Part shown: piece after piece, positions 1,095 to 64,000 of the stretch | How the letters are laid out: every line of letters starts with the position of its first letter | Numbering within the stretch: position 1 is the stretch's first letter | Sequence record: HQ630627.1 | Direction: 5' to 3' (one strand) | DNA length: 64,000 nt | DNA from: Pseudomonas phage PhiPA3 | Translations under genes and position numbers: made by a program | Notes under the pieces: model-generated | Databases searched by the model: none | What the model saw: the letters and a program-made list of their open reading frames with translations, nothing else | Told to the model about the DNA's origin: nothing

Positions 1095-1766
1095 ATGCAA
1101 GCCATGATCAACGCTGTTCGTCGTATTCCGTTCTTCCGTTCGGTTGATAGCAATGCGATGGAACGTGAATTCTTTTCCACTATCCTCGATGACGATTATA
1201 GCGTCACTGTCATGGATAAGAAGGAGCCCATCATGAAAGAAGTATTCGCGATGGAAGATCTGCCTAGTGTAGGTGATCCCAGCCTCGTGTACAAGGTTAC
1301 CTCCACCTCGGACATGTTCCGTTGGGTTAACGGTCAATACGTCACCTACAACCCCTATCTGGATCCGAAGGAAATACATGATGAACGGGTCATGTTGATT
1401 GATCCATATGCTAACATGCCCTCGATCTCGGAAGACAAGCTCAAGGCCGGCGGCGACATGCGTTTGTCGATGATCTACAACGTGCAAGCTCTGCGTGAAG
1501 ATCTTCGCCGACTCAACGAACTGGGTGTAAACCTGGAAGTCTTGATTGATCGCAACCTGCGTCAATCTGGTTATGACACCCCGTCCACTTGGCTGATCCA
1601 GAACCATACCCTGCTCGTGCGCCAACTACGTTCCATCATGAAAGGCAAGAACAACTACGATAAGCATGTCGTAGAGGGACTGGCTTTGCAAGGCGTAGAT
1701 GTGTGGTATGACATCAAAACTCAACGTGTTGGTTTCCGTGATGGATTGTTTGTGGTAGCGGTATAA
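1095..1766 (+). CDS. hypothetical protein (ORF 1050..1766; ATG at 1095 preceded by an AAGGA RBS)
   Basis: ORF track plus RBS inspection. Confidence 0.5.
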   Translation: MQAMINAVRRIPFFRSVDSNAMEREFFSTILDDDYSVTVMDKKEPIMKEVFAMEDLPSVGDPSLVYKVTSTSDMFRWVNGQYVTYNPYLDPKEIHDERVMLIDPYANMPSISEDKLKAGGDMRLSMIYNVQALREDLRRLNELGVNLEVLIDRNLRQSGYDTPSTWLIQNHTLLVRQLRSIMKGKNNYDKHVVEGLALQGVDVWYDIKTQRVGFRDGLFVVAV

Positions 1767-8059: not shown

Positions 8060-8098
8060 CGACATAAAAGCCCCACCTTCGGGTGGGGCTTTATGCTC
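8059..8098. terminator. bidirectional extended palindromic element (AACGACATAAAA-gccccacc-ttcg-ggtggggc-TTTATGCTC)
   Basis: convergent gene ends, GC stem, UUCG loop. Confidence 0.65.
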
Positions 8099-32865: not shown

Positions 32866-33540
32866 TTAACCCGCAAGATTGTTGTTCAAGTGCATCCCTT
32901 TCAGGTACACCGACAACGTCAAGTTAGATTTAGTTTGGCTAGGCGTCTCGGCCATGATCGAATCCAAAGAAGCTTCACCTGTTTCAATGATCGACTTATT
33001 CATGGCATTATAAGCCTTCTCGTCACCCCCTCGGAACTTAATGAGTTCGAGTACCATGTTGTTAAGGCCTTTAGAGGCGTTAACCTGGATCTCTGGGGCC
33101 GATAGACGAGCACCCTTACTATCACCAGCGGCTTGACCAGATCGTTCGTCTACGATGTGATTAGAGCCCGGAATAGAGGACTTCTTCACCAGCATCTGAA
33201 CTTGTCGACGGAACGGAACCAAACCCACCAAATGTTTGTTCTGAGTCTTGTACGTCTGACCCGTTTGAGGGTCAGTCAGAATCAGATGTTGGAAGAGTTC
33301 GTGACCCAGGGCATCAGCAACTTTGTAGTTCTGATTAATACTGAGTTGAGGCTCTTCCAGGTTGGGAGCATAGAGCGCTAGAACTTCACCTGCCTCCAGC
33401 CGCTCCATCCATTCTTCGAACTCTTTGTCATTCATTCGAGCAAAGAGTTCTTCGTAGATCTTTTTGTTGTTCGAGCCAGGTCGGAACATGTCGATGAAGT
33501 AGAGGATTTCACGCTCTACAACTTTGCGATCGCCTTTCAT
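32866..33540 (-). CDS. hypothetical protein (224 aa)
   Basis: ORF. Confidence 0.5.
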   Translation of the reverse strand: MKGDRKVVEREILYFIDMFRPGSNNKKIYEELFARMNDKEFEEWMERLEAGEVLALYAPNLEEPQLSINQNYKVADALGHELFQHLILTDPQTGQTYKTQNKHLVGLVPFRRQVQMLVKKSSIPGSNHIVDERSGQAAGDSKGARLSAPEIQVNASKGLNNMVLELIKFRGGDEKAYNAMNKSIIETGEASLDSIMAETPSQTKSNLTLSVYLKGMHLNNNLAG

Positions 33541-48068: not shown

Positions 48069-50561
48069 ATGCGCATTGTTTATTTTCGGTTGAGCAAATA
48101 TACTCGACTGATGGCGACTAACATTCAATCTTTTGAGTGGACGCCAACCAAGAATCTGATGATCATGATTGGATCTAATGGATCAGGTAAGTCCTCGATT
48201 ATGGATGAACTGTCCCCGTTACCCGCAAAAAAGGATGAATTCGAAAAAGGCGGTGAGAAAGAGGTCCATTGCTATCATCGCGATCACTTTTATGTGGTTC
48301 ACTCAGTTTATGGACATGGTACTGGACGACATTCATTTAAGCGTGATTCAGTTGAATTGAACCCTGGGGGTACATTCAAAGTTCAAGAAGAACTCTGTAT
48401 GCAGGAATTTGGTCTGAACGTCGAACGGCATCGTATCATGACTGGTCGTATTAAGTTCACCAACCTGCCAGTGTCTAAGCGTCGTGAATACCTAACCGAG
48501 ATGTCGGTAGTTAACCTCGACTTCGCCTTTGATACATTTAAGATGGTGTCTACTGAACAGCGTAACCAGAAAGGGGTTATTGACACTATCACCAGGCGCT
48601 TGGTGGCTGAGAACCACGACATTCCATCTGATACGGAAATGTCGCTGATGCGTGATAATGTTGCCGCCATGACTAAACGATTGAATCGATTGTTCCAAGA
48701 GAAGCAATCGAATGCACCGAAGGCGCAGTTCTTCTCCACGGATGCTATCGAACAGGAACGTGAGGCTATTATTACTAAGGCCAAGCAACTGCTTAGGTCA
48801 TACATGTACATTCCATCTAGCGTCAAGTGTCATGGTAGAGATGGTGCGATTGCTCAGCTCAATAGTGTCAAACAGGAACATTCAGCCATCACCGCTGTGA
48901 TCAATCGATTGGCAGAAGAACTTGAGAAGCTTCGTACATCTACTCCACAGTCGATGGAAGTCTCGCCTGATGAGATCAGATCTTTGCGGGAACAATACGA
49001 CACCTTGTTGGACATTTATGTCCGTAAGTCTAATCAAGTCGGTCAATACAATGCCTCGTTCCCGTTGGTGCAATTTGATCTAGCTGGAGATCCTCATCAA
49101 AAACTAGATACTCTGTTTGAACGGTGGTTTGCATCGATCAATGCCTTTCCTGACAATGCTGACGCACGGATGTCACGTGAAGAAGCGGTTACTCGTCAGG
49201 CGCGTCTGAAAGAACTCAAAGGCGTTCGTCGTCAAATCGATGACAAACACCAATCGGTTTGCCAGCGCATTGCACGGATGAAAGGTTGTGAGCATGTTAA
49301 GTGCCCGAACTGTAATCATGACTTCCAACCAGGGGTTGCTGAAACCGAAGCAGTTGAGCTAGAGGCTTCTAAACTTAAATTAGAAGAAGCCATGGATCGT
49401 CTGGATATCGAAGTAAAAGAACATGAAGAGTATTTGGAACAGTTCCAAGATTACTCCGGTCATGTTTACAACTTCGTGCAGATTAACAAAGACTATCCCG
49501 AATTCCATGAACTGTGGAGTTATTGTGCTAGTAAGTTGATCATGTTCCGTACCCCAGCTCAACATAAGACTGACGCCATCATGTGGCATACAACGATGCG
49601 GACTTGGGTGGATGCTCAGCAAGCACTAGCTCGTGCTCAGGTTATCGAACAACGTCTGAAAATCATCGATGAGATCGATCAAGATGCGATCGGTTTCATG
49701 AAGCGCCGGACAGCTGATCTAGAAACCGAGATCAACGAGATGTATACGCGCGCTGATGTCTTTCGTCATGGTGTTCTGGAAATCGAAGAAGCGATTGATG
49801 AAGTTGATAACTACGTTGCTGCTGCTCAAGCAGTCTTTGATGAATATGAGATTTGGCAAACCAAAGTTCGTAATCATTGTGAGCATCTTCTGGACCGGGC
49901 ATATACCGAAGAAATCAGCGCTATTCAACTGGAACTGGCTGAACATAATCGACAATTGAATATCCTGCAACAAAGGGAAACTACAATCCGCACATTGGAG
50001 AACGAAGTAGCCTTATCCACGGAAGCTTATGACGAACTCTCATTGATCATCAAAGCGTTGTCTCCGAAAGGAGGGTTGATTGGTAGATATCTACTAGGGT
50101 TCCTACAGGGGGTGGTGTCTGTAGTGAACGCACACATCGACGAAGTCTGGTCATATCCGATGGAAGTTCTGCCATCACGGGTAGATCGCGATGAACTCGA
50201 TTACCGTTTCCCGCTTAAGGTGGGTGGTGGTAAAGTGATCACTTCAGATATCGAAGATGGTTCGAGCTCTCAGCTAGAAATGGTGAACTACGGTTTCCGT
50301 ATGGCTCAACTGAAGTTCTTAGGTCTGGAAGACTATCCGTTGTTCCTGGATGAATTCGGTCGTACCTTTGATGAACAACATCGGGCTAACCTGATTCCAT
50401 ATCTCAGTCGTTTGGTTGAGAACGGTCTAGTGGAACAGATATTCTATATCAGCCATTTCCAATCAACTCATGGCGCTTTCAATCAGGCCGAGTTCATGGT
50501 CTTGGATCCAACCAACGTGACCGTTCCAGAAGTTTACAACAAGAACGTTGTAATCAAATAG
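48069..50561 (+). CDS. Rad50/SbcC (T4 gp46)-like ATPase with coiled coil and CxxC hook
   Basis: Walker A GSNGSGKSS; central CPNC within a predicted coiled coil; C-terminal signature-like GSSSQ, Walker B LFLDEF, H-loop ISHF. Confidence 0.65.
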   Translation: MRIVYFRLSKYTRLMATNIQSFEWTPTKNLMIMIGSNGSGKSSIMDELSPLPAKKDEFEKGGEKEVHCYHRDHFYVVHSVYGHGTGRHSFKRDSVELNPGGTFKVQEELCMQEFGLNVERHRIMTGRIKFTNLPVSKRREYLTEMSVVNLDFAFDTFKMVSTEQRNQKGVIDTITRRLVAENHDIPSDTEMSLMRDNVAAMTKRLNRLFQEKQSNAPKAQFFSTDAIEQEREAIITKAKQLLRSYMYIPSSVKCHGRDGAIAQLNSVKQEHSAITAVINRLAEELEKLRTSTPQSMEVSPDEIRSLREQYDTLLDIYVRKSNQVGQYNASFPLVQFDLAGDPHQKLDTLFERWFASINAFPDNADARMSREEAVTRQARLKELKGVRRQIDDKHQSVCQRIARMKGCEHVKCPNCNHDFQPGVAETEAVELEASKLKLEEAMDRLDIEVKEHEEYLEQFQDYSGHVYNFVQINKDYPEFHELWSYCASKLIMFRTPAQHKTDAIMWHTTMRTWVDAQQALARAQVIEQRLKIIDEIDQDAIGFMKRRTADLETEINEMYTRADVFRHGVLEIEEAIDEVDNYVAAAQAVFDEYEIWQTKVRNHCEHLLDRAYTEEISAIQLELAEHNRQLNILQQRETTIRTLENEVALSTEAYDELSLIIKALSPKGGLIGRYLLGFLQGVVSVVNAHIDEVWSYPMEVLPSRVDRDELDYRFPLKVGGGKVITSDIEDGSSSQLEMVNYGFRMAQLKFLGLEDYPLFLDEFGRTFDEQHRANLIPYLSRLVENGLVEQIFYISHFQSTHGAFNQAEFMVLDPTNVTVPEVYNKNVVIK

Positions 50562-50581
50562 ATTTAAACCCGTTACACGCC

Positions 50582-50589
50582 TATATTAC
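50582..50589 (+). promoter_or_regulatory. TATATTAC motif (phiKZ-type early promoter consensus as I recall it) 24 nt upstream of the 50614 start
   Basis: exact 8-mer; recurs at 52305. Confidence 0.3.
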
Positions 50590-50613
50590 AAACGTGATTA
50601 ACAAGGAGCTACT

Positions 50614-50826
50614 ATGGACGCTTCACTGATGAAATTAGTGTTGTTTATGGTTTTGTTGATTACGTTTGTATTGGCTGTAGTATTCTGGGTCTACTGGAAG
50701 ATGGTAGCTTTCGAGAAACTCGAAGAACAGAAGAAAATCATTGCGTGTAAACGCTGGAGAGCTGTATCAAGTTCTGGTGTAACCACCGCAGGTATCTTTT
50801 GTTATTGTGGGCATTGCGATGGATAA
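50614..50826 (+). CDS. small membrane protein (70 aa, N-terminal TM)
   Basis: AAGGAG RBS; hydrophobic LVLFMVLLITFVLAVVFWVY. Confidence 0.45.
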   Translation: MDASLMKLVLFMVLLITFVLAVVFWVYWKMVAFEKLEEQKKIIACKRWRAVSSSGVTTAGIFCYCGHCDG

Positions 50827-51112
50827 ATTCGATAGTCTCGCAGGTTTGGTATGTTTCCTCGTATTGCTTTTCTTCGTAGGGAAGATTATCTTGTCGGATA
50901 TTTTCTCAACTCTAGAGAAGCAACAACATGATGAACTGCATAAACAACATGCGGAGCAGTTACGTCTTGATGCCGAACGCTATCAAGAACGATTAAACGA
51001 AATTGGTCGGGGTCGAATAGACATTGGGTATGTTTTCGATTACGAAGATTGGTTACTAGATAAACAAGACCATCAGCGTAATGGAACCCATTATGAAGTC
51101 ATCAACATTTAG
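50819..51112 (+). CDS. small membrane protein (about 97 aa, N-terminal TM; start 50807 or 50819)
   Basis: hydrophobic LAGLVCFLVLLFFVGKIIL; overlaps the upstream gene end. Confidence 0.4.
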   Translation: MDKFDSLAGLVCFLVLLFFVGKIILSDIFSTLEKQQHDELHKQHAEQLRLDAERYQERLNEIGRGRIDIGYVFDYEDWLLDKQDHQRNGTHYEVINI

Positions 51113-51140
51113 CCTCCTTCGGGAGGCTCTATGTCGTAAA
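51104..51140 (+). terminator. hairpin agcctcc-ttcg-ggaggct plus CTATGTCGT
   Basis: UUCG stem-loop plus TATG. Confidence 0.5.
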
Positions 51141-51157
51141 ACCTAAAAGGTGTTATC

Positions 51158-51532
51158 ATGAGCATCGCCGCGATGATGAATCGTATCGCGAAACGTATCC
51201 GTTTGATCCAGGTATGTCCAATGAGGGTCTACGTGACCCTTAGAGCGGCCACAGGCGCGTATTTCGACGTAGACATAGACAACGGTAGCTTTTGCTTTAC
51301 TGTGCGTTCTAGCGCGTCTGAAGGGCGCCGCGTGATGGGTACATTTCAGATCGATTCAGAAACCGGTTGGGTGATGCTGACTAGTTTCTATAACGAGATG
51401 TATAGTACCGAGTTCGGTGACCTATTACATTCAATTGACAGGACTCTGGAACTGCACAAAGATTGCTATGGGTTAGTCATCAACAATCTCCAGTTAATGG
51501 AGGAAGACGCTCGCGTCCGTTGGTTTCACTAA
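51158..51532 (+). CDS. hypothetical protein (124 aa)
   Basis: AAAAGGTG RBS. Confidence 0.5.
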   Translation: MSIAAMMNRIAKRIRLIQVCPMRVYVTLRAATGAYFDVDIDNGSFCFTVRSSASEGRRVMGTFQIDSETGWVMLTSFYNEMYSTEFGDLLHSIDRTLELHKDCYGLVINNLQLMEEDARVRWFH

Positions 51533-51546
51533 AAGGAAGAAAGAAT

Positions 51547-51801
51547 ATGCATGGCAAAAGTAATGATCTGTTCAGTGGTATCTTCGCTAACTTCTTCAAT
51601 ATCGATAAACCCAAGGTAGATACCTGGGTGATTGAGGTTGCTGGGCAACGCTCCACCATTCTCCCAGGTGAGTATCACTCTGAACGAAATGCACGTTTGG
51701 CGTGTGAAATCATCAACATGACCCCAACAACCGAACTGGTGGAAATCTTTGGTCATGGTTCGTGCCGACTGAACCCAGTCAAAACCCAAACCAAAGCTTA
51801 A
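51547..51801 (+). CDS. hypothetical protein (84 aa; ATG at 51547 with AAGGAAG RBS inside ORF 51463..51801)
   Basis: RBS-supported internal start. Confidence 0.45.
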   Translation: MHGKSNDLFSGIFANFFNIDKPKVDTWVIEVAGQRSTILPGEYHSERNARLACEIINMTPTTELVEIFGHGSCRLNPVKTQTKA

Positions 51802-51838
51802 TCACCAAACTAATTCAATTTAGAAAAAGGAAATTATC

Positions 51839-52234
51839 ATGTCTCAAGTAGCTCGTATGGCCACCGCTCTGCATCAACTCAACATCGCCATGTCTCAGGT
51901 TCAGGAGGCTGCCAAGCAACTGATGAAGGAAGGTGATCCGCGCACCGTGGAAAAGTTCGCGGATGAATACAGCGGCCTGACCTTCCGTGAAGCCCACATC
52001 TACCTCTTGGACTCCGGCACCAAAGTGGCCTACACCATCGAACAACTGAAAGAAGTGCTGTACCTGCAAGACCTGGAATCCATCCACCCGGATCGTAAGG
52101 GGTGGCGGGAAGCCGCCAAGGCTGCATCGCACACCATCCTCGCCATCAAGGAGCTGCGCACTCAGTTCCCTGAGCTAGATGTCCGTTCGGCGAAGCTGAT
52201 CGTCGAAGCCTATCGTGAGGGTCTGTTTGAATAA
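51839..52234 (+). CDS. hypothetical protein (131 aa)
   Basis: AAAAGGAAA RBS. Confidence 0.5.
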   Translation: MSQVARMATALHQLNIAMSQVQEAAKQLMKEGDPRTVEKFADEYSGLTFREAHIYLLDSGTKVAYTIEQLKEVLYLQDLESIHPDRKGWREAAKAASHTILAIKELRTQFPELDVRSAKLIVEAYREGLFE

Positions 52235-52244
52235 CAGCACCAAC

Positions 52245-52287
52245 TGACGGCATAACGCCCCTCCTTCGGGAGGGGCTTATGTCTACT
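52245..52287. terminator. extended palindromic element (GACGGCATAAC-gcccctcc-ttcg-ggaggggc-TTATGTCTAC) plus T8
   Basis: the left arm is the exact reverse complement of the TTATGCCGTC consensus. Confidence 0.65.
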
Positions 52288-52304
52288 AAATTTTTTTTCA
52301 CATC

Positions 52305-52312
52305 TATATTAC
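52305..52312 (+). promoter_or_regulatory. TATATTAC motif 45 nt upstream of a small unannotated ORF
   Basis: exact 8-mer in an AT-rich intergenic region. Confidence 0.3.
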
Positions 52313-52357
52313 CTATCTGAGCAATATCCCGCTGGCTCAAGCATGAGGTAAATAAAA

Positions 52358-52499
52358 ATGGGTTGGAAAAGTTATGTTGCCCTGTCATTGGGCGTGGTAC
52401 TGGGCGCCGTGATCTTCGTTGCAATCAGTGAAGATGGTTTACCCGAGCGAATCGAAAACATCGAAGAGGCTGATGCCAGTCCGATCAATATTGAGTGAT
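52358..52499 (+). CDS. small TM protein (46 aa; MGWKSYVALSLGVVLGAVIFVAIS...) not in the supplied ORF track
   Basis: ATG with GAGGTAAATAAAA upstream; single hydrophobic helix; below the 60-aa cut-off. Confidence 0.35.
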
Positions 52500-52504
52500 C
52501 GGTT

Positions 52505-52933
52505 ATGTACAAGAAACTCACCGCACTTAAACGACACTACAGACGAGAGCGTATTCTCGACCTGTTCCTAGATCCGGAAATTAAGGAGAAGCTCGCACAC
52601 ACTCCAATGTTCTGGAGAGGCGAAGAGATCACGTTCTATTGGAACGGATCTGAGCTGCGGTATTATCATCTCGATCGAAATGGGGATTGGCGAGTCCTCA
52701 TTGCAGATGAAGGCTTTCTACACAGCATCAAGATACTTCAGTATGATTTTTGTAAGATCACAGGAATCCCCTATAAGGGACCTGAGATCGATAAGAGCGT
52801 ATCAGTTGATGTAATGCCAGTAAGGACAAGGAATCAATGTAAGGAGGAAGCTGAAGCTCTATTTGGAATGTTTGGTGTTGGTTCACTGTTAGCTCTAACG
52901 AGTTTATATATCTACAAAGCTTGGAAGAGATAA
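52505..52933 (+). CDS. hypothetical protein with C-terminal TM anchor; atypical codon usage (AGA/AGG/ATA/CTA)
   Basis: the codon bias differs from the rest of the window; C-terminal FGVGSLLALTSLYIYKAW segment. Confidence 0.45.
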   Translation: MYKKLTALKRHYRRERILDLFLDPEIKEKLAHTPMFWRGEEITFYWNGSELRYYHLDRNGDWRVLIADEGFLHSIKILQYDFCKITGIPYKGPEIDKSVSVDVMPVRTRNQCKEEAEALFGMFGVGSLLALTSLYIYKAWKR

Positions 52934-53039
52934 TGTACTCGGGTGTTTATGATTTGTAGCTAGGACTAAAGAATTCGGAGGGAGGCTTTTTATATTCTTT
53001 TATCCTACAGTTCTTTTCTATAAACACCAAGGTATAAAC

Positions 53040-53498
53040 ATGAGCAGCATCATTCGATACAACATCAAGACTGCGAATAAACCGATTCTTGATGTTCTAC
53101 ATCTGTATCTGGGTATTCGTGAAAGAGTCGATGAAGTCAACAAGACTGTAATCGACGGAACTACTGTAGAACTGAACCTAGTCCTGGTAGTAAACCATCG
53201 CTATATCCGAGACTATGATGAGATTGCCGATACATTGGCAAATCTATCAAAAGGAACTCCGTATGAACTCTACATACTGAGTAATCGATTCCTGTTCAGT
53301 TGGATGACTGATAACTTCAATGACCTGGGTGGTTTACAAGAACGTTATCAGACTGTTTTGGAAAGTGATGTCTATGGTACCGTATACGACACCACCAGAG
53401 CACGATACACGAAAACACCGGAATGGCGATCCCCACATTTAGGATGGGCTGAGACCTTTAATCGGGGTTTCAATAGTTTGGTGAGTGTATTTGGATAA
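53040..53498 (+). CDS. hypothetical protein (152 aa) in an AT-rich, atypical-codon segment
   Basis: ORF with AAGG RBS. Confidence 0.45.
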   Translation: MSSIIRYNIKTANKPILDVLHLYLGIRERVDEVNKTVIDGTTVELNLVLVVNHRYIRDYDEIADTLANLSKGTPYELYILSNRFLFSWMTDNFNDLGGLQERYQTVLESDVYGTVYDTTRARYTKTPEWRSPHLGWAETFNRGFNSLVSVFG

Positions 53499-53542
53499 GT
53501 CGGCATAAGCCCCACCCGAAAAGGTGGGGCAATATGTCGTTA
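53499..53542. terminator. bidirectional extended palindromic element (GTCGGCATAA-gccccacc-cgaaaa-ggtggggc-AATATGTCGTT)
   Basis: convergent gene ends. Confidence 0.65.
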
Positions 53543-54058
53543 GAAACCAAGAAGTGCTTCTTCTTCTTTGCGTGCCTTTTCACGAATAGCTTCCATGCGT
53601 TCAGTGAATTCTTCCGAAGTCTCAGCGATCACACCGATTTCGTCTTCACCTTCAGCATGGGTAAATTCGCCCAGATCTTCTTGATCGATTTGTGGTTCCA
53701 TACCACGACCATCACCTTCAGTGGCGACGAATGGGTTCTTGTTCTTTGCATTTTGAATAAATGCAGCCATACCAGCCAATAGGTCTGCCGAAGTACGGTT
53801 GGCTTCCTGATCGACACTGATACGCTTGTTAGCGATCGCTGTACGATCCATGGAGTCCATGACCTTAAGCATGGTATCAACAGATTCTTTATCTGTAGGG
53901 ATGGTTCCTACTGGATTGGAGAACGCCAGCTGATGCAGAATGCGTTGTTTGGTATTCTGAGTATACTGGATCTGTTCTTCATAGGTCATGTCCGAGTATT
54001 GCCGTTCAGGCTCTACTGGTACAAATACGTGGGGCTTCTCAGCGGGATACTGTTCCAT
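53540..54058 (-). CDS. hypothetical acidic protein (ATG at 54058 with GAGGTG RBS; ORF track starts at 54133)
   Basis: RBS-supported start. Confidence 0.45.
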   Translation of the reverse strand: MEQYPAEKPHVFVPVEPERQYSDMTYEEQIQYTQNTKQRILHQLAFSNPVGTIPTDKESVDTMLKVMDSMDRTAIANKRISVDQEANRTSADLLAGMAAFIQNAKNKNPFVATEGDGRGMEPQIDQEDLGEFTHAEGEDEIGVIAETSEEFTERMEAIREKARKEEEALLGF

Positions 54059-54132
54059 GGGACACCTCTCGTTGGTAAAAATACCCAACGGAATAACTAT
54101 ATGCCATAAAATGCGGATTGGAGTTCTATACA

Positions 54133-54675
54133 ATGATTACAAGGCTACGCCAATGGTGGCGCGGACTATCGGCAACACCCAAACAAAAGTATACCCGCTG
54201 GCTGGAAGAGATCAATGAAATCCCTACGTTATCAGAGGAACTCCCCGACGCATTAGTTGAGCTCTGGCGGCGAATCGACGTTGATGCAATCAGTCGTCAA
54301 AACCCCCGAGTGATGATGTCAGCCTTCTTCGAGCTGCGTCATGCCAATATCCAGGAATTGATCCAAACCCTACATCAGGTCAATGACCACGTTGCATCGG
54401 GATCAGCTTCTAAGATTGAATACCTATCGAAGAACGATTTCATTAAGCATCGCGAAATGTCCTTGGATAATTATTTCGTGGATGCTGAAAATTACGCTGT
54501 CGATATTAAAGAACATCTATCCCAACTTAAAGACTTGCTGATTACCCATGGTCAGATTCTGGAAATTAAGGAGGAGAGTTTTTATCGTCGCATGTTAGGT
54601 CGCTTATACTTCGATGTACTAGCACTGACAGAAACACTCGTTAAACATATGCAAGAGGGCACCGATATGAAGTAA
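54133..54675 (+). CDS. hypothetical protein (180 aa; ATG at 54133 with GGAG RBS)
   Basis: ORF. Confidence 0.45.
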   Translation: MITRLRQWWRGLSATPKQKYTRWLEEINEIPTLSEELPDALVELWRRIDVDAISRQNPRVMMSAFFELRHANIQELIQTLHQVNDHVASGSASKIEYLSKNDFIKHREMSLDNYFVDAENYAVDIKEHLSQLKDLLITHGQILEIKEESFYRRMLGRLYFDVLALTETLVKHMQEGTDMK

Positions 54676-54727
54676 CTGGGAATACGATCACGAAACCTTT
54701 AGTTCAATTCACCGTAGGTGTAAAGCA

Positions 54728-55483
54728 ATGGATTCTATCAAGGACCTTTTGGCTGATCCTCTTAAGGGTACCAAACAGGCTCAGGGCGTTCTGTGTTATT
54801 TGTTTCGTGAAGTGTTGTTATGGCGTAAGATTAATTGGTTTACCTGGAATCGTCGTCAGAAAGCATACTTCGAGAAACCTCACAACGCAGTCAATCCCGA
54901 TAAAGGGAATCTGAATAAAGCGTTGAAGGCTGATGACATGAACTGGCCAGGCTTCAAGAAAGGGATCGACTTCCTTAACCCGGAATCCGCTACCCTGGAA
55001 GTGAAGCTGAACTGGACCCATAAGGAAAGTACGAGCTATGTGATTGTCATCGACCCCACGGAAGATGAGAAAAATCCCACAGTCAATAATTTCCCATGGC
55101 AGGACTGCCCGATCTTCAAAAGTGCTAAACCCGCTGAAACATTGATGTCTCATCTTTTTCGTCACATTGTGGCGGAGGAAGGGAAAGGTGAACCCGACAT
55201 CATGGTCTGGTGGGAGAAGAAGTTCGATGACTACATTAAGAACCCAGTTAATGTAGTTGGCCTGAACCAAAAGGAAATCAACCAAAACATCGCAGCATTG
55301 CGACGTTCGTTGATGGAAGCTCGCATGTCATGGAACGTGTTCCGCCGTGGATTGCATTTGTTGCGGCCTCGCTCGGAGGAATACATTCTGACGCTCCACT
55401 GGACGACAGACCCGGAAATGAAGAAAACATTACCGGACTCGATTCACCCAATCAAGATCGCCGACCCGTACTTTGTGGAATAA
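54728..55483 (+). CDS. hypothetical protein (251 aa)
   Basis: ORF. Confidence 0.5.
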   Translation: MDSIKDLLADPLKGTKQAQGVLCYLFREVLLWRKINWFTWNRRQKAYFEKPHNAVNPDKGNLNKALKADDMNWPGFKKGIDFLNPESATLEVKLNWTHKESTSYVIVIDPTEDEKNPTVNNFPWQDCPIFKSAKPAETLMSHLFRHIVAEEGKGEPDIMVWWEKKFDDYIKNPVNVVGLNQKEINQNIAALRRSLMEARMSWNVFRRGLHLLRPRSEEYILTLHWTTDPEMKKTLPDSIHPIKIADPYFVE

Positions 55484-55486
55484 CTC

Positions 55487-55865
55487 GATGGATAACACAA
55501 TCGACCTCAGCTCCCCTCAATGCCCAGAAGTATTGCAGTTTCATGGAAGCCACCTGAAATGGACTGCGACAGGTAAGGCATTTTACAGCTGGAATGGATT
55601 GCGACTTTACCTGATCACCGGTAAACAACATCCTAAATACCTCGATGGTATCGGACTGGAAGAAGCTGGTGTTGAGAATAAATACGAGTTTGTCGAATCG
55701 CTGTACCAACAGCTGGAAGATGCACTACGTATTAACATCGCGAAGTTTCCTCTGCTGCGCTTGAAGTTGAACAAGCGTACGCGAATCATCTGGACGGCTT
55801 ACGGTATTACTCCGGCTGAAGAGGAATGGGTGAAAATTGTTCAACGCGTAGTGGCGAGCATGTAG
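55487..55865 (+). CDS. hypothetical protein (125 aa; start uncertain between 55473 and 55487)
   Basis: ORF. Confidence 0.4.
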
Positions 55866-55871
55866 TTGAAG

Positions 55872-55910
55872 GACATGGGGCGTCTCCGAAAGGGGACGCC
55901 TTATGCCTCC
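55872..55910 (+). terminator. hairpin ggcgtctcc-gaaa-ggggacgcc (GNRA loop) plus TTATGCCTCC
   Basis: seen directly. Confidence 0.55.
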
Positions 55911-55952
55911 AATTGTATGACCTATTATTTTTTTGTCTGAACAGGTGTAACC

Positions 55953-57125
55953 ATGCCTACTCTCGCATCAGCTTCCTTTACAGGTATACCAACAGATCCC
56001 GTCAAAACGGTGGATGCCTATAAAGACGTAGTGGACACAACCCTACAGAACACGCTTCAACCTAAAATCTCTGCCTTTGAAATTGGCATGGATGACCTGC
56101 TCGCCAAAACTACCAAAGTTGTAAAAGGTATTGGTAGTAGTTTGTTGGGTAGTGGAGGTATTGACCTCAACCAAGCTAAAGATCGAATCGTTGATGCCTT
56201 AAAAGGCTCCCGTTCGAGCATTGTGTATTTGGGAGAAGCCCTAGAACGTTCGATTAACGAAGAACTCACTGGAACCGATACAGGTACAGGTTACGTCCGC
56301 AAGGCTACGGATATGCTCGATGGCGTAAAAGCCATCATGCAGAACAAAGAGTACTACTTCGAAAATGGAAACTTCCAAGGTGTCAACGGCATCATGGGAT
56401 TCTTGGGAGATCTGACCAATAACTCCATTCTTCGTGCAGTTGACTTGGGTGCCAATGCTGCCATTCTGAAAGGAGTGTTATCCCAGGTATCAGCCTGGGG
56501 GATTCCTGATCTGGTTGATACCACATTCGGGGCATCGTGGAATGACCAGTACAAGCGCTATGATTACCAGTATGACGATAATTTCCGATTCACTGTAGCC
56601 AAGCGTACATCTAAAGATCTCTCGCCGGGCACTGATCTGCTCACCATTGATCGCATCATGGTACATGGTGGAGATATGGCCCTGGTTGCTGAGAACCCAG
56701 ACTTCCCTATCCAACTGCTGAGTTCATACGTGTTCCCAGCTGGTACTGTACCCGGTGGTCCATTCCCAGTAATGATCCCAGATCCAGCTAATCCAAGCGG
56801 CCCTATGATCCCTGACCCGGAAGGTACACAGACCGTACCCAATTACGCGAATGAACTCGCATTGTTGTTGGAGATCATGGATCGCTTGAAACCAGACTGG
56901 TTCTATTACTTGCGTCGAGTATTTATTGATCGGAATGGCGATGGCGATTATTACCGTGATGATAAGGTTTGGAATCTTCGGGTTATTGCTCAAGCTTCTC
57001 AAGATGCAACAACATTACTGTTAACCAGTGATGAGCACCGTGATGCTGTTCTGACTGCTCCGTTTTATAAGGTGGAGAGTGCCACAGCTGAACTCAAAGC
57101 GATGTATCCCTACTTTGCTGAATGA
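55953..57125 (+). CDS. hypothetical protein (390 aa)
   Basis: ORF. Confidence 0.5.
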   Translation: MPTLASASFTGIPTDPVKTVDAYKDVVDTTLQNTLQPKISAFEIGMDDLLAKTTKVVKGIGSSLLGSGGIDLNQAKDRIVDALKGSRSSIVYLGEALERSINEELTGTDTGTGYVRKATDMLDGVKAIMQNKEYYFENGNFQGVNGIMGFLGDLTNNSILRAVDLGANAAILKGVLSQVSAWGIPDLVDTTFGASWNDQYKRYDYQYDDNFRFTVAKRTSKDLSPGTDLLTIDRIMVHGGDMALVAENPDFPIQLLSSYVFPAGTVPGGPFPVMIPDPANPSGPMIPDPEGTQTVPNYANELALLLEIMDRLKPDWFYYLRRVFIDRNGDGDYYRDDKVWNLRVIAQASQDATTLLLTSDEHRDAVLTAPFYKVESATAELKAMYPYFAE

Positions 57126-57162
57126 CAACATAAACGCCTCCCTTCGGGGAGGCTTTATATTT
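57123..57162 (+). terminator. hairpin (GACAACATAAA-cgcctccc-ttcg-ggggaggc-TTTATATTT)
   Basis: seen directly. Confidence 0.55.
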
Positions 57163-57219
57163 GAATGCATCTAAACCCTATATCACTAACATGAATCCAA
57201 TAACCAAGAGGAAAATACA

Positions 57220-57480
57220 ATGACTGAACGTTTGAAATCGGTATGGGTTGCTTGCTCCCTGTTGCGGACACGGTGGCCCACTATCCAAGATCTTCCGGTC
57301 GGTGAAGACTATCATGTCATCGTTAAAAATGACTCACTGATGGTCTTCAAAGGTCAGACTCCTGTCGGTTCTATGCATAGAACTGATAGCGAGCCACGTA
57401 TCTTCGAGGGGCATACTCTTGAAGAATTTACCAAGGTCGTTCTGGACTTGGAATACGATACCCATGAGGGTCATCGTTAA
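57220..57480 (+). CDS. hypothetical protein (86 aa)
   Basis: AGAGGAAAA RBS. Confidence 0.45.
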   Translation: MTERLKSVWVACSLLRTRWPTIQDLPVGEDYHVIVKNDSLMVFKGQTPVGSMHRTDSEPRIFEGHTLEEFTKVVLDLEYDTHEGHR

Positions 57481-57483
57481 TGC

Positions 57484-57526
57484 GATATAAAACCCTCCCC
57501 GCCAAGGGAGGGTTTTATGCCGTTCA
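57484..57526 (+). terminator. hairpin AAAACCCTCCC-cgccaa-GGGAGGGTTTT plus ATGCCGTTC
   Basis: seen directly. Confidence 0.55.
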
Positions 57527-57609
57527 GAGTGTTAACGCAAACTGAATGGAGTGGTAACCGCGGTCCCGCTCTCGCAAAAGTACCGTAGACAAAACTAAAA
57601 GGGCCACCC

Positions 57610-57921
57610 ATGAAATGGTCTTTTATCAACGAGCCATTCCGGCGCCTTTTACGGGTGCGGGACGTGGTTTGTAACCGAGATTATTATCTTACTACTGAAG
57701 GTTGGACGCCGGATGAAGTGGATAATACTCTCGCATATAATACGGTAGCAGAGTATAATAAAGCTCTGGCCCGTGCTAAAATGGATGTATTAAACGGTTT
57801 GTTCAGCAACAACGTGTTGTTGGACGGTCTTGATGTAACCCAGGAAGTCATCGACGGTAACGTTAAGCTTGTCAGGTGGCCTCCAAGTTGTGAACTACAT
57901 CACGTGCAGCTAGCTGCCTAA
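57610..57921 (+). CDS. hypothetical protein (103 aa)
   Basis: AAAAGGG RBS. Confidence 0.45.
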   Translation: MKWSFINEPFRRLLRVRDVVCNRDYYLTTEGWTPDEVDNTLAYNTVAEYNKALARAKMDVLNGLFSNNVLLDGLDVTQEVIDGNVKLVRWPPSCELHHVQLAA

Positions 57922-57966
57922 GAACATAAAGCCCTCTCCTTCGGGAGAGGGCGATTATGCTTTCTT
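57921..57966. terminator. bidirectional extended palindromic element (AGAACATAAA-gccctctcc-ttcg-ggagagggc-GATTATGCTTTC) plus T10
   Basis: convergent gene ends. Confidence 0.65.
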
Positions 57967-57972
57967 TTTTTT

Positions 57973-58806
57973 TTATCGTTTCCGCATGTAGTGCGGAATA
58001 CGAGCTGGCTGTTTGCGCGTCCAACCGAGTTGTTCGATCAGTTCGCTTACATCCATATTCGCATCAGACTCCAGACCCAGTGATTTCTGTTTCATTGCCT
58101 GATCCTGCATACCCCAGAGAGTAGCAGGTGTAATGACAACTTCAGTTTCAGCAAAGCTTTCTAGTGCTGGTGACTTATACTTGTTAGCGATGTAAATACC
58201 GCCTTCACCCACAAAGTCCCATGTAGAAATCTCACGGGTGTATTTGATGCCACGCATCATGTCATCTTGAGTAATCGAACGTACCGAACAATAGGTGTTG
58301 ATACTCGGATTATCGAGCGACTCTTTGAAGATATGGCCGAATGGACCGTAAGGCTTGACTTCACCTACGACCATTTTGACCCGACGACCTTCCTCATTGA
58401 TGGTATCAACAATGGACAGTGCACGGATGTGCGCACAGACGCGATCGTCATCGATTTTGCGGATACGTTGCAGATATTCCCGATCAGACAGTTGTCGTTT
58501 AACAACACGACCTTCAACCAGGATTTCTTCCCAGGGTTCAGGATGCTTGAACTCCATGAACAGTACGCCCTTTTTCAGACGACGCATCAGCGGGCTGTCA
58601 GGGTTGAACATGGAGACACCACTGGCTTCGTCATAAAACATACCAGCAGAGTTATGGGTACCATAGGCACCGAGAACGACTGTGTAATAACCGTCCGCAC
58701 TTGGGGCAAGAATGCCCTTCTTGTCAGTACCGGCGAGCATCGTACAACCAATGCGGACTTGGTTGGCTACGTTGTTAGCGCGCTGCGGTTGCGTTCCGAA
58801 TTGCAT
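57973..58806 (-). CDS. hypothetical protein (about 277 aa; ATG at 58806, TTG at 58812)
   Basis: ORF; ACGGGG RBS. Confidence 0.5.
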   Translation of the reverse strand: MQFGTQPQRANNVANQVRIGCTMLAGTDKKGILAPSADGYYTVVLGAYGTHNSAGMFYDEASGVSMFNPDSPLMRRLKKGVLFMEFKHPEPWEEILVEGRVVKRQLSDREYLQRIRKIDDDRVCAHIRALSIVDTINEEGRRVKMVVGEVKPYGPFGHIFKESLDNPSINTYCSVRSITQDDMMRGIKYTREISTWDFVGEGGIYIANKYKSPALESFAETEVVITPATLWGMQDQAMKQKSLGLESDANMDVSELIEQLGWTRKQPARIPHYMRKR

Positions 58807-62346: not shown

Positions 62347-62544
62347 TTAAATACCCAGCAGTTTAGACACACGAGCTACCAGGGCAGCTTGGATATCCGG
62401 TTTAGTCAGAAACTCGCCTTCCAGTGTGGCGGCGTGAGAGTCAGAGCCCAGGGACCGAACGATAGCTTCGGCCCCCAGTTCAGCAACAGCGGTCAAAACT
62501 GCTACGTTCTGACCGTGTGCAACGTTACTACTTAGCTTTTGCAT
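62347..62544 (-). CDS. RNAP beta subunit extreme C-terminal segment (65 aa from an internal ATG; +1 frame relative to the upstream beta fragment)
   Basis: LTAVAELGAEAIVRSLG matches beta [20 protein letters not shown]; C-terminal ALVARVSKLLGI matches beta FNVLLKEIRSLGI; GAGGAA RBS 6 nt before the ATG. Confidence 0.5.
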   Translation of the reverse strand: MQKLSSNVAHGQNVAVLTAVAELGAEAIVRSLGSDSHAATLEGEFLTKPDIQAALVARVSKLLGI

Positions 62545-63784
62545 TTGTGGTTCCTCGATATACGCCTGCAATATGCTTGGACAATGCACGGAGCAAAATG
62601 CTCGTGGTTGAAATGAGTTTAGGAGACATTACCATCCGTTCCTCTACAGAAGTATTGCCGAAGATCAGATCAATCGGAGTACCGTCTTCCGTTTCGTTAC
62701 GACCTTCCATTACCCGAGAGATAACAGTTTTCATCTGGTTACCGAGTACACCTTTATCACCGACACCACAAGAGATGTCATGGTCGATATAGATGCGGAT
62801 AACCATGTGGTCTGGTTCAAGGATTTGACCTTTCACACGGAACGACGAATCCACTTCACCGGTAAACACCGGTTGATTCAGAGACTTCGCAATATCTGCA
62901 CGTTGTTTGTCAGAGGCGCGAGCGATCGCTTGCAGGTTCTCGGACATGTCTTCGATGTCACCATGATAGTAACATTCGATCTTCGACACAGTACCGACAA
63001 CTTTAGCACGCGGGGTGTGCGCAGCCAGTCGACGCAGCGTTTCAATAGCCGCATCGCCAAACAGCGTGTTCTCTGCGGTTTCGGGGTCTTCGATTATACA
63101 TAGAATTGAATTCAGGTCGACATGGTCTCCCCGCTTCACCAATTCTGAAACATGTTGATCAAAGCGAACAGTGATGTTCTTAATGTCGGTGGTCTGTGTT
63201 TGTAGGCGCACAGCCAGTTCTTTCGAAATGGTTGAGCCGTCCTCCAATGTATCGAGGTTATCACAGAAAGCCACCGTTGCCATACATCCAGCTTTCCACA
63301 ACACTTGGCCCGGAGCATAACGGTCCGCAGTGAAGTACTTACGGTTGTACGCGATCGTATCACCATGTTTGAACTTGTCACCTTTCTTCAGATCAGTTAC
63401 CAAGTCATGTGGATAGTTCACACCAGCAGCGGTGCCATGAACGATCCCCAGAGGCGAACTCACGATTTCTCCATCAGCGTATTTAACGGTAATGCCATGC
63501 TCGTCAACCGAGATAACTTCACCGTCTTGTTCAGCAGCAGTAGCGAAGATGGAACTGGTACGCTGTGCTACAATTTGCTCGTAGCCGGTACGCACTGGAG
63601 TTACTTCGTAACCATCAGCATAGATACCTTGCTGTTGCTGAATACTGATAAATCCGACGCGTTTCATCGAGATCTTCAGATAGTTCGTTAGACTATCCCG
63701 TGCGTTTAAGCACTGCTCTAGGCTTTCCCTAGATGTCGAGACTATATCTTCCCCTACGTGAGAGGCTTCCCATTTCGAGCCCAC
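62528..63784 (-). CDS. multisubunit RNA polymerase beta subunit, C-terminal half (split-gene fragment as in phiKZ-like phages)
   Basis: [14 protein letters not shown] matches [47 protein letters not shown] matches [56 protein letters not shown] matches [47 protein letters not shown] matches GTPVDIVLNPLGVPSRMN (E. coli RpoB numbering ~650-1120); GTG start. Confidence 0.75.
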   Translation of the reverse strand: [418 protein letters not shown]

Positions 63785-64000
63785 TTGAGCCCTACACCGT
63801 GATAAGCGGTTAGTCGTTGAACCTTACCCATATCTTTCGACTTAGGGTCTTGGCTGCTGATTGTCCAATCTATCTCGTTTTCAAACCGTCAATACCTGCT
63901 TTCGCGGTACTTGTGGTGAGACAGCTCTAAGGACGTTCCAGCAATTAGAGAAGATACCATCTAGATATCGCTATCTAGTGGGACTGTATCTATTAAATCT

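Follow-up and report, generated by a model that had tools for sequence, protein, structure and literature searches.

Four intergenic sites and their conservation

The window analyzed here, a stretch of 64,000 nucleotides (nt) from Pseudomonas phage PhiPA3 (sequence record HQ630627.1), carries four short plus-strand elements ahead of small genes that share the 8-mer core TATATTAC or a close variant of it, and we consider it very probable that they are phiKZ-type early promoters read by an RNA polymerase (RNAP) packaged in the virion. An exact scan of both strands confirmed TATATTAC at 50582–50589 (P1) and 52305–52312 (P2), both on the plus strand and with no further exact copy on either strand. 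The preliminary description of this DNA had also been right in placing these cores 24 nt ahead of the ATG at 50614 and 45 nt ahead of the ATG at 52358, which opens a 46-amino-acid (aa) open reading frame (ORF). Both variants that it had pointed out are present as well, each with one mismatch: the core TATATCAC lies at 57179–57186 (P3), and the core TACATTAC lies at 1040–1047 (P4), one position off from the 1039–1046 given previously. All four cores are non-coding and fall into the approximately 5% of the window that a greedy ORF tiling leaves outside ORFs.

Large ORFs of the window match PHROG families of jumbo-phage virion, tail, internal-head, and nucleic-acid proteins, and a conserved 900-aa structural protein shares 77–84% identity with the Pawinskivirus group (PS119XW, PA1C, and BRkr), 61–66% with Phabio, Psa21, and 201phi2-1, and 59% with phiKZ-like phages. 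These protein identities assign the window to a Chimalliviridae (phiKZ-like) Pseudomonas jumbo phage, the phage type named in the preliminary description, and the window also holds homologs of the virion RNAP proteins gp149 and gp178. Megablast-level DNA identity to the records of a phage collection is confined to one 90-nt stretch, and gene-by-gene tblastn shows the window to be syntenic with gp147–gp212 of PS119XW, the closest annotated relative, whose whole genome was used for comparison. A search of IMG/VR with orf142, a gene behind P2, gave no closer relatives, and its best tblastn match in the phage genome collection is only 24–28% identical, so footprinting was based on PS119XW, Phabio, and phiKZ.

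The extended context of the sites was scored with a 42-nt log-odds matrix (−24 to +17) trained only on 21 intergenic PS119XW sites. Across both strands of the window, exactly four matches reach at least 8 bits, all on the plus strand: P1 (50558–50599; 33.4 bits), P4 (1016–1057; 32.4 bits), P2 (52281–52322; 29.6 bits), and P3 (57155–57196; 28.5 bits). The maximum in 40 first-order Markov shuffles of the window is 9.0 bits, about 20 bits lower, and the range of 28.5–33.4 bits falls inside the leave-one-out range of the training sites themselves (19.9–48.9 bits). With a second matrix, derived from 60 PS119XW and phiKZ sites, the identical four matches and no others appeared at a 5-bit threshold. 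Counted from the first base of the core, the distance to the start codon is 32 nt for P1, 53 nt for P2, 41 nt for P3, and 55 nt for P4, compared to 31–116 nt (median 47 nt) at the 60 reference sites, and the start codons are preceded by Shine-Dalgarno sequences.

P1 begins at the stop codon of an SbcC-like gene, with no hairpin ahead of it, and consists of a distal ATTTAAA (50562–50568), a weak proximal gTTaCAcgcC (50572–50581), the core, and GTGA (50594–50597). A 10-nt insertion of gttacacgcc between TTTAAACCC and the P1 core, relative to PS119XW, was considered and rejected, since ATTTAAA lies exactly at the distal position (−20 to −14) and the proximal box is simply weak. At P2, TTTTTTTTCACATC stands ahead of the core and CTGA follows at 52317–52320; P3 has TAAACCC ahead of its variant core, and P4 reads TTTAAAGCC, the variant core, and then AAATGAGA. 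Subtracting the modal phiKZ 5′ untranslated region (UTR) of 31–40 nt (PMC8244752) from the median core-to-ATG distance of 47 nt places the transcription start site (TSS) between approximately +7 and +16 from the core start, a span that covers the conserved TG; by this analogy, the predicted TSSs would lie at approximately 50595–50598 (P1), 52318–52321 (P2), 57192–57195 (P3), and 1053–1056 (P4), with 50596, 52319, 57193, and 1054 as point estimates.

The preliminary description had proposed a genome-wide check for intergenic enrichment, which was run in the relative PS119XW and did not go against the motif there. This genome holds the exact 8-mer 27 times, compared to an expectation of 11.6 (first-order Markov), and 21 of these copies are intergenic by the record's annotation and co-oriented on the plus strand, 30–50 nt before a plus-strand gene (binomial P ~2e-18, taking 8% of the genome as non-coding). 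Their consensus of about 37 nt reads cAtT.AAA at −21 to −14, aTTT.Aaa.C at −10 to −1, the core, and gTGA at +12 to +15. With the PS119XW matrix, 33 matches of at least 10 bits are found in PS119XW, all on the plus strand and one of them before the nuclear-shell gene gp054. The same matrix gives 31 such matches in phiKZ; the 30 on the plus strand score at least 15 bits, and their number is close to that of the published early promoters of this phage, for which RNA-seq with primer extension gave 28 (Ceyssens et al. 2014, cited in PMC8244752) and dRNA-seq 32 (PMC8244752), 18 having been recovered by ONT-cappable-seq (PMC10914365). Among the phiKZ matches are sites before PHIKZ054 (chimallin), whose mapped primary TSS carries the early motif, and before PHIKZ260, which also has a mapped primary TSS (PMC8244752). 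Variant cores of the TATATCAC and TACATTAC type occur in high-scoring intergenic sites of both PS119XW and phiKZ, too.

All four sites have an ortholog in the syntenic intergenic region of PS119XW: P1 at 172070 before gp195, P2 at 173983 before gp199, P3 at 179019 before gp207 with an exact core, and P4 at 123981 before gp148 with the core TATATCAC (27.3 bits). In phiKZ, the orthologs of P1 and P2 lie at 171854, just after the SbcC homolog PHIKZ165 and before PHIKZ166, and at 172370 before PHIKZ166.1; they follow PHIKZ165 as P1 and P2 follow the SbcC-like gene of the window. Our literature search found no published early TSS at PHIKZ166 or PHIKZ166.1. P2 also has an ortholog in Phabio (L009:5412), where TATATTACCTATCTGA is the same as in the window, and the alignment of this site shows hairpin, T-run, and core kept across genera while the neighboring sequence has diverged.

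The preliminary description had named a match to the early promoter element of phiKZ-like phages, and the literature bears this out, since TATATTAC is tabulated as the predicted phiKZ promoter (PMC7058600). Each jumbo phage that encodes its own RNAP has a conserved motif upstream of presumed early operons (PMC7598289), and where transcripts were profiled this motif is the early consensus, about 10 nt long, AT-rich, and centered near −10 (PMC7598289; also PMC8244752 and PMC10914365). The virion RNAP, to which this consensus is credited, “must” recognize it because early transcription proceeds without host RNAP or protein synthesis, and such independence of immediate transcription is described for phiKZ and AR9 (PMC7598289).

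Two genes for subunits of such an enzyme lie in the window, both on the minus strand. The ORF at 32866–33540 encodes a homolog of phiKZ gp149 (tblastn match at 32872–33528, 66.5% identity over 221 aa, E = 2e-102), a protein annotated as RNA polymerase beta subunit and structural head protein and listed as a virion-associated RNAP subunit (PMC8244752). The ORF at 62528–63715 is the 3′ exon of a virion RNAP beta-like subunit, homologous to phiKZ gp178 from residue 1074 through its C-terminus. It aligns with positions 1050–1423 (of 1424) of the RNA polymerase beta subunit family phrog_3148 (E = 3e-175) and shares 81% identity with PS119XW gp212 and 74% with phiKZ gp178 (match at 62531–63664). Going by the phiKZ annotation and literature, both homologs would be packaged in the virion.

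The gene of the gp178 homolog is split by a group I intron at 63716–63997 on the minus strand (Rfam RF00028, full-length model, 59.9 bits), and past the intron the homology resumes at residue 1076 of PS119XW gp212 and residue 1074 of phiKZ gp178, both of which are uninterrupted. In the published gp211/gp210/gp209 arrangement of PhiPA3, the insertion site aligns with D1072 of gp178 (PMC11620839), and the break in the window matches this gp211/gp209 point. An HNH endonuclease ORF of the intron, if present, would lie beyond the end of the window.

The early-promoter reading and its alternatives

By analogy with phiKZ, we infer promoter activity, the start sites predicted above, early timing, and dependence on the virion RNAP for all four sites. 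The injected multisubunit enzyme would recognize a composite element of about 40 bp without the help of host RNAP or new protein synthesis, comprising a −10-like core TATATTAC (with TACATTAC and TATATCAC tolerated), A/T-rich elements near −20 and −30, and a conserved TG(A) 5–7 nt past the core at the expected transcription start. It would then read short plus-strand units of small genes: two small membrane proteins behind P1, ending at a hairpin (51105–51134), a 46-aa membrane protein and orf142 behind P2, orf86 and orf103 behind P3, and orf223 behind P4. Strong terminator hairpins directly ahead of P2 and P3 would insulate these units from upstream transcription.

Several observations weigh against this interpretation. 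Taken by itself, the 8-mer shows no enrichment in the window (2 copies seen versus 1.81 expected from dinucleotide shuffles), nor are its one-mismatch copies (35 versus 43.8 expected); a count at chance level proves nothing by itself, so the extended context was used instead. Two of the four cores, those of P3 and P4, are one mismatch off TATATTAC. At P1, the proximal (−20) element is degenerate, the distance of 32 nt between core and ATG lies near the lower limit of the reference sites, and the resulting 5′ UTR of about 18 nt would be unusually short. The matrix scan of phiKZ gave no match where orthologs of P3 and P4 would be expected, and a weak Phabio counterpart of P3 lies upstream, not downstream, of the hairpin, so the conservation of P3 and P4 is confined to the PS119XW lineage. 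For phiKZ itself, recognition by the virion RNAP is deduced from the independence of host RNAP and protein synthesis (PMC7598289), and our literature search found no TSS map of PhiPA3.

As an alternative, the sites could be middle or late promoters of the non-virion RNAP or be read by both polymerases. Such overlap has precedent, as PHIKZ054 has an early-type plus a middle-type TSS (PMC8244752) and unexpected promoter classes were seen at some genes of 201phi2-1; moreover, the late consensus TATG is part of the YTTATG tail after the P2 and P3 hairpins, by which these units could also be served late. However, the published motifs of the middle class (weak and AT-rich, or TACT at around −22 to −24) and of the late class (TATG overlapping the TSS) are unlike TATATTAC, and the 30 matrix matches in phiKZ fit the early class (28–32 members) and neither the middle class (33) nor the late class (66). 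The four sites lack a conserved TATG in core and flanks, the copy in the hairpin tail upstream of P2 being a separate element, and the late promoter p119L has TATG but neither a hairpin nor TATATTAC. We therefore regard middle or late promoters as improbable; some units may be served by both polymerases.

It is also conceivable that the sites are chance matches or inert relics, or that they serve another role as binding sites of a DNA-binding protein or as recombination hotspots for the swapping of gene cassettes. The chance-level count of the 8-mer would fit the former, and the fact that the genes right behind P1 differ between phages would fit a conserved element that marks recombination junctions. 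Nevertheless, the extended-context scores exceed the best null by about 20 bits, orientation and start-codon distance are strict, and the motif is kept across four genera despite diverged neighboring DNA; this score gap, geometry, and cross-genus conservation exclude chance matches and inert relics. The TSSs of phiKZ map to the same motif, and we deem this whole group of explanations very improbable. Least credible of all are host sigma-70 promoters from which the host RNAP would transcribe the small genes: TATATT in the core does match TATAAT at 5 of 6 positions and the A/T-rich upstream DNA could act like an UP element, but a scan of 50000–58000 for sigma-70 promoters, with TTGACA-like −35 and TATAAT-like −10 hexamers spaced by 16–18 nt, called none of the three sites located there (13 calls in total versus 12.1 expected), the conserved flanks (ATTTAAA, TTTAAAgcC, C at −1, and TGA downstream) are foreign to sigma-70, and phiKZ reportedly transcribes its genes without the host RNAP (PMC8244752, PMC7598289).

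As phiKZ-type early promoters, the four sites add to an already well-described promoter class of this phage family, and knowledge of how these phages transcribe their genomes is unchanged by the result. They would allow the annotation of four early units and make orf70, orf97, orf46, orf142, orf86, orf103, and orf223 candidate early proteins, a class whose members act ahead of phage-nucleus assembly. The sites would also be compact promoter parts specific for the phage polymerase, and the cross-genus matrix shows that early promoters of Pseudomonas chimalliviruses are reliably predictable from sequence.

Genes, hairpins, and flank types behind the sites

The P1 unit comprises orf70 (50614–50826) and orf97 (50819–51112), both on the plus strand and each with a strong N-terminal hydrophobic helix (Kyte-Doolittle 19-residue maximum of 3.12 and 2.76, respectively). 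Neither has a PHROG or Pfam family above threshold, and the syntenic blocks of PS119XW and phiKZ hold no homolog of either. The unit is closed by a terminator-like plus-strand hairpin at 51105–51134 (GCCTCCTTCGGGAGGC then TCTATGTCG, with a weak U-tract; −16.3 kcal/mol, z = −4.4), which a simple terminator scan left uncalled because its T-run is poor. The three genes between this hairpin and the terminator ahead of P2, orf124, orf84, and orf131 (51158–52234), lack an early-type promoter and may be transcribed by read-through of the hairpin or from a promoter of another class.

The plus-strand terminator hairpin just upstream of P2 (52249–52283; −26.5 kcal/mol, z = −7.9) was called by the scan and is kept in PS119XW, Phabio, and phiKZ; its T-run (52293–52300) overlaps the upstream A/T element of P2. 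Behind P2 follow, on the plus strand, orf46 (52358–52498), with one hydrophobic helix (Kyte-Doolittle maximum of 2.42) and 40% identity to PS119XW gp199, and orf142 (52505–52933), with a C-terminal hydrophobic segment (maximum of 1.79), a match to PS119XW gp200, and a nearly full-length match to phrog_32000 (E = 4e-81). Next to the weak tblastn match of orf142, this PHROG match implies that the phage of the window, or a near-identical one, is represented in PHROGs but not in the phage genome collection. The hairpin just upstream of P3 (57130–57158; −16.9 kcal/mol, z = −4.1) can fold on either strand and is called on both. The P3 unit consists of the plus-strand genes orf86 (57220–57480; phrog_23594) and orf103 (57610–57921; ortholog of PS119XW gp207), both of which look soluble, and ends at a hairpin at 57931–57952. 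P4 precedes orf223 (1095–1766, plus strand), a phrog_14839 member that appears soluble, shares 51% identity with PS119XW gp148, and is a homolog of phiKZ gp125. None of the genes behind P1 to P4 falls in an informative family. Small membrane proteins, as claimed by the preliminary description, are thus found behind the two exact-core sites (orf70, orf97, orf46, and the C-terminal segment of orf142) but not behind the variant sites, and a role of these genes in host takeover is a guess.

Gene content around the sites varies between the phages. PS119XW gp194, gp195, and gp197 have no counterpart in the window, the window carries orf86 as an extra gene between P3 and the gp207 ortholog, and the genes right behind conserved promoter positions are non-homologous between the window, PS119XW, and phiKZ (PHIKZ166–167). 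The promoter-proximal slots look like hotspots for the exchange of small accessory genes.

Hairpins with a GC-rich 7-bp stem, a TTCG (or CGAA) loop, and YTTATG within a few nt occur in the window at 8071, 22641, 37137, 46912, 51111, 52258, 57136, and 57933, and many of them fold on both strands; in PS119XW, GCTTTATG is present in 52 copies versus 8.9 expected. A conserved terminator motif has been reported for phiKZ and 201phi2-1, and this element is probably the same. A double role as terminator and, through its TATG tail, as late promoter is speculative; hairpin plus YTTATG tail as a late-promoter architecture was considered and found unsupported, the TATG of the characterized late promoter p119L coming without a hairpin.

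Around the common core, the early-type sites of phiKZ and PS119XW split cleanly in two by their flanks. Class A (27 sites) reads tATTtAAA..tTTtAAAc.c-TATATTAC-AAatgTGAtatt, with two TTTAAA-like boxes plus AAATGTGAT, and class B (33 sites) reads TAAAAa.taTTT.AgATC-TATATTAC-...TG, with an A-tract plus TTTCAGATC and only TG downstream. Three window sites are of class A (1040, 50582, and 57179) and 52305 is of class B, with class-specific matrix scores of 32.8 bits for P1, 35.9 bits for P3, and 30.3 bits for P2; both classes are kept across phiKZ, PS119XW, and the window. Class B is found ahead of chimallin, the gp068-like gene, and further large, conserved early genes, class A mostly ahead of small genes, and the median length of the first gene is 154 aa for class B versus 114 aa for class A, a modestly significant difference (Mann-Whitney P = 0.02, uncorrected). 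It is possible, though on balance doubtful, that these are two discrete early-promoter architectures that share only the core, class B in front of conserved early genes of large size and class A in front of accessory genes that are small and rapidly exchanged. If so, they could reflect two recognition modes, kinetic subclasses such as immediate-early and delayed-early, or different strength or specificity factors, and the split would go beyond the single early consensus of the published literature cited here.

A few further sites of these types were noted in the relatives. PS119XW has tandem class A promoters 50 nt apart before gp321, at 261804 and 261854 (L007:11804 and 11854; 47.3 and 47.4 bits). 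A class B early-type promoter stands right after the major head protein gene in both PS119XW (117685; L004:17685) and phiKZ (120657; L011:20657), and in PS119XW a 660-nt gap without annotation begins with it and holds a 159-codon ORF from 117731. In Phabio, the promoter-like TATATAAC at L009:11027 (16.5 bits) is located upstream instead of downstream of the conserved terminator hairpin; it could produce only a very short transcript or be a decayed site.

Comparison with known systems

The early promoters of phiKZ resemble the window sites in their TATATTAC core, the T/A-rich elements upstream of about −19, their intergenic plus-strand location, and a similar distance to the start codon, and one PS119XW matrix recovers 30 plus-strand sites of phiKZ and the four window sites with comparable scores. 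They differ in that two of the four window sites, P3 and P4, have one-mismatch cores and no phiKZ counterpart, that the genes behind the window sites are mostly non-homologous, and that the window promoters are predicted from sequence.

For 201phi2-1 (Serwervirus), the published motif is TTAWTAVAA_HYWTTTRARR_BTATATTACDWHDGTG (PMC7058600, Table 2). The class A window sites agree closely with it, P1 reading ATTTAAA...CC-TATATTAC-AAAC-GTG and P4 reading TTTAAAGCC-TACATTAC-AAAT-GAG, as well as the conservation at around −10, −20, and −30 and the placement before hypothetical genes. This phage belongs to another genus, however, only 6 early promoters (plus 2 by MAST) were detected in it by ONT-cappable-seq (PMC11512511), and P2 of the window bears the other flank type of A-tract plus TTTCACATC. 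The layout is also shared with OBP and N1M2 (WWWWWTTTCARRYAKATATTATYWAAGTG), whose form P2 resembles through TTTTTTTTCACATC-TATATTAC, and with EL (WTTTYAAACCTACATTATY), whose form P4 resembles through TTTAAAGCC-TACATTAC; unlike the window sites, these distant phages have ATATTAT or TACATTAT as core, and their motifs are bioinformatic predictions.

Coliphage N4 has a virion RNAP that is a single-subunit enzyme and recognizes a small DNA hairpin. When the P1 stretch (50555–50600) was folded as the only one of the four sites, no stable hairpin of this type was found (−2.1 kcal/mol, z = 0, using RNA parameters). The strategy of N4 would nonetheless be the same as that proposed here, i.e., a packaged polymerase that reads early genes from phage-specific promoters, with the difference that the polymerase of the window phage is multisubunit.

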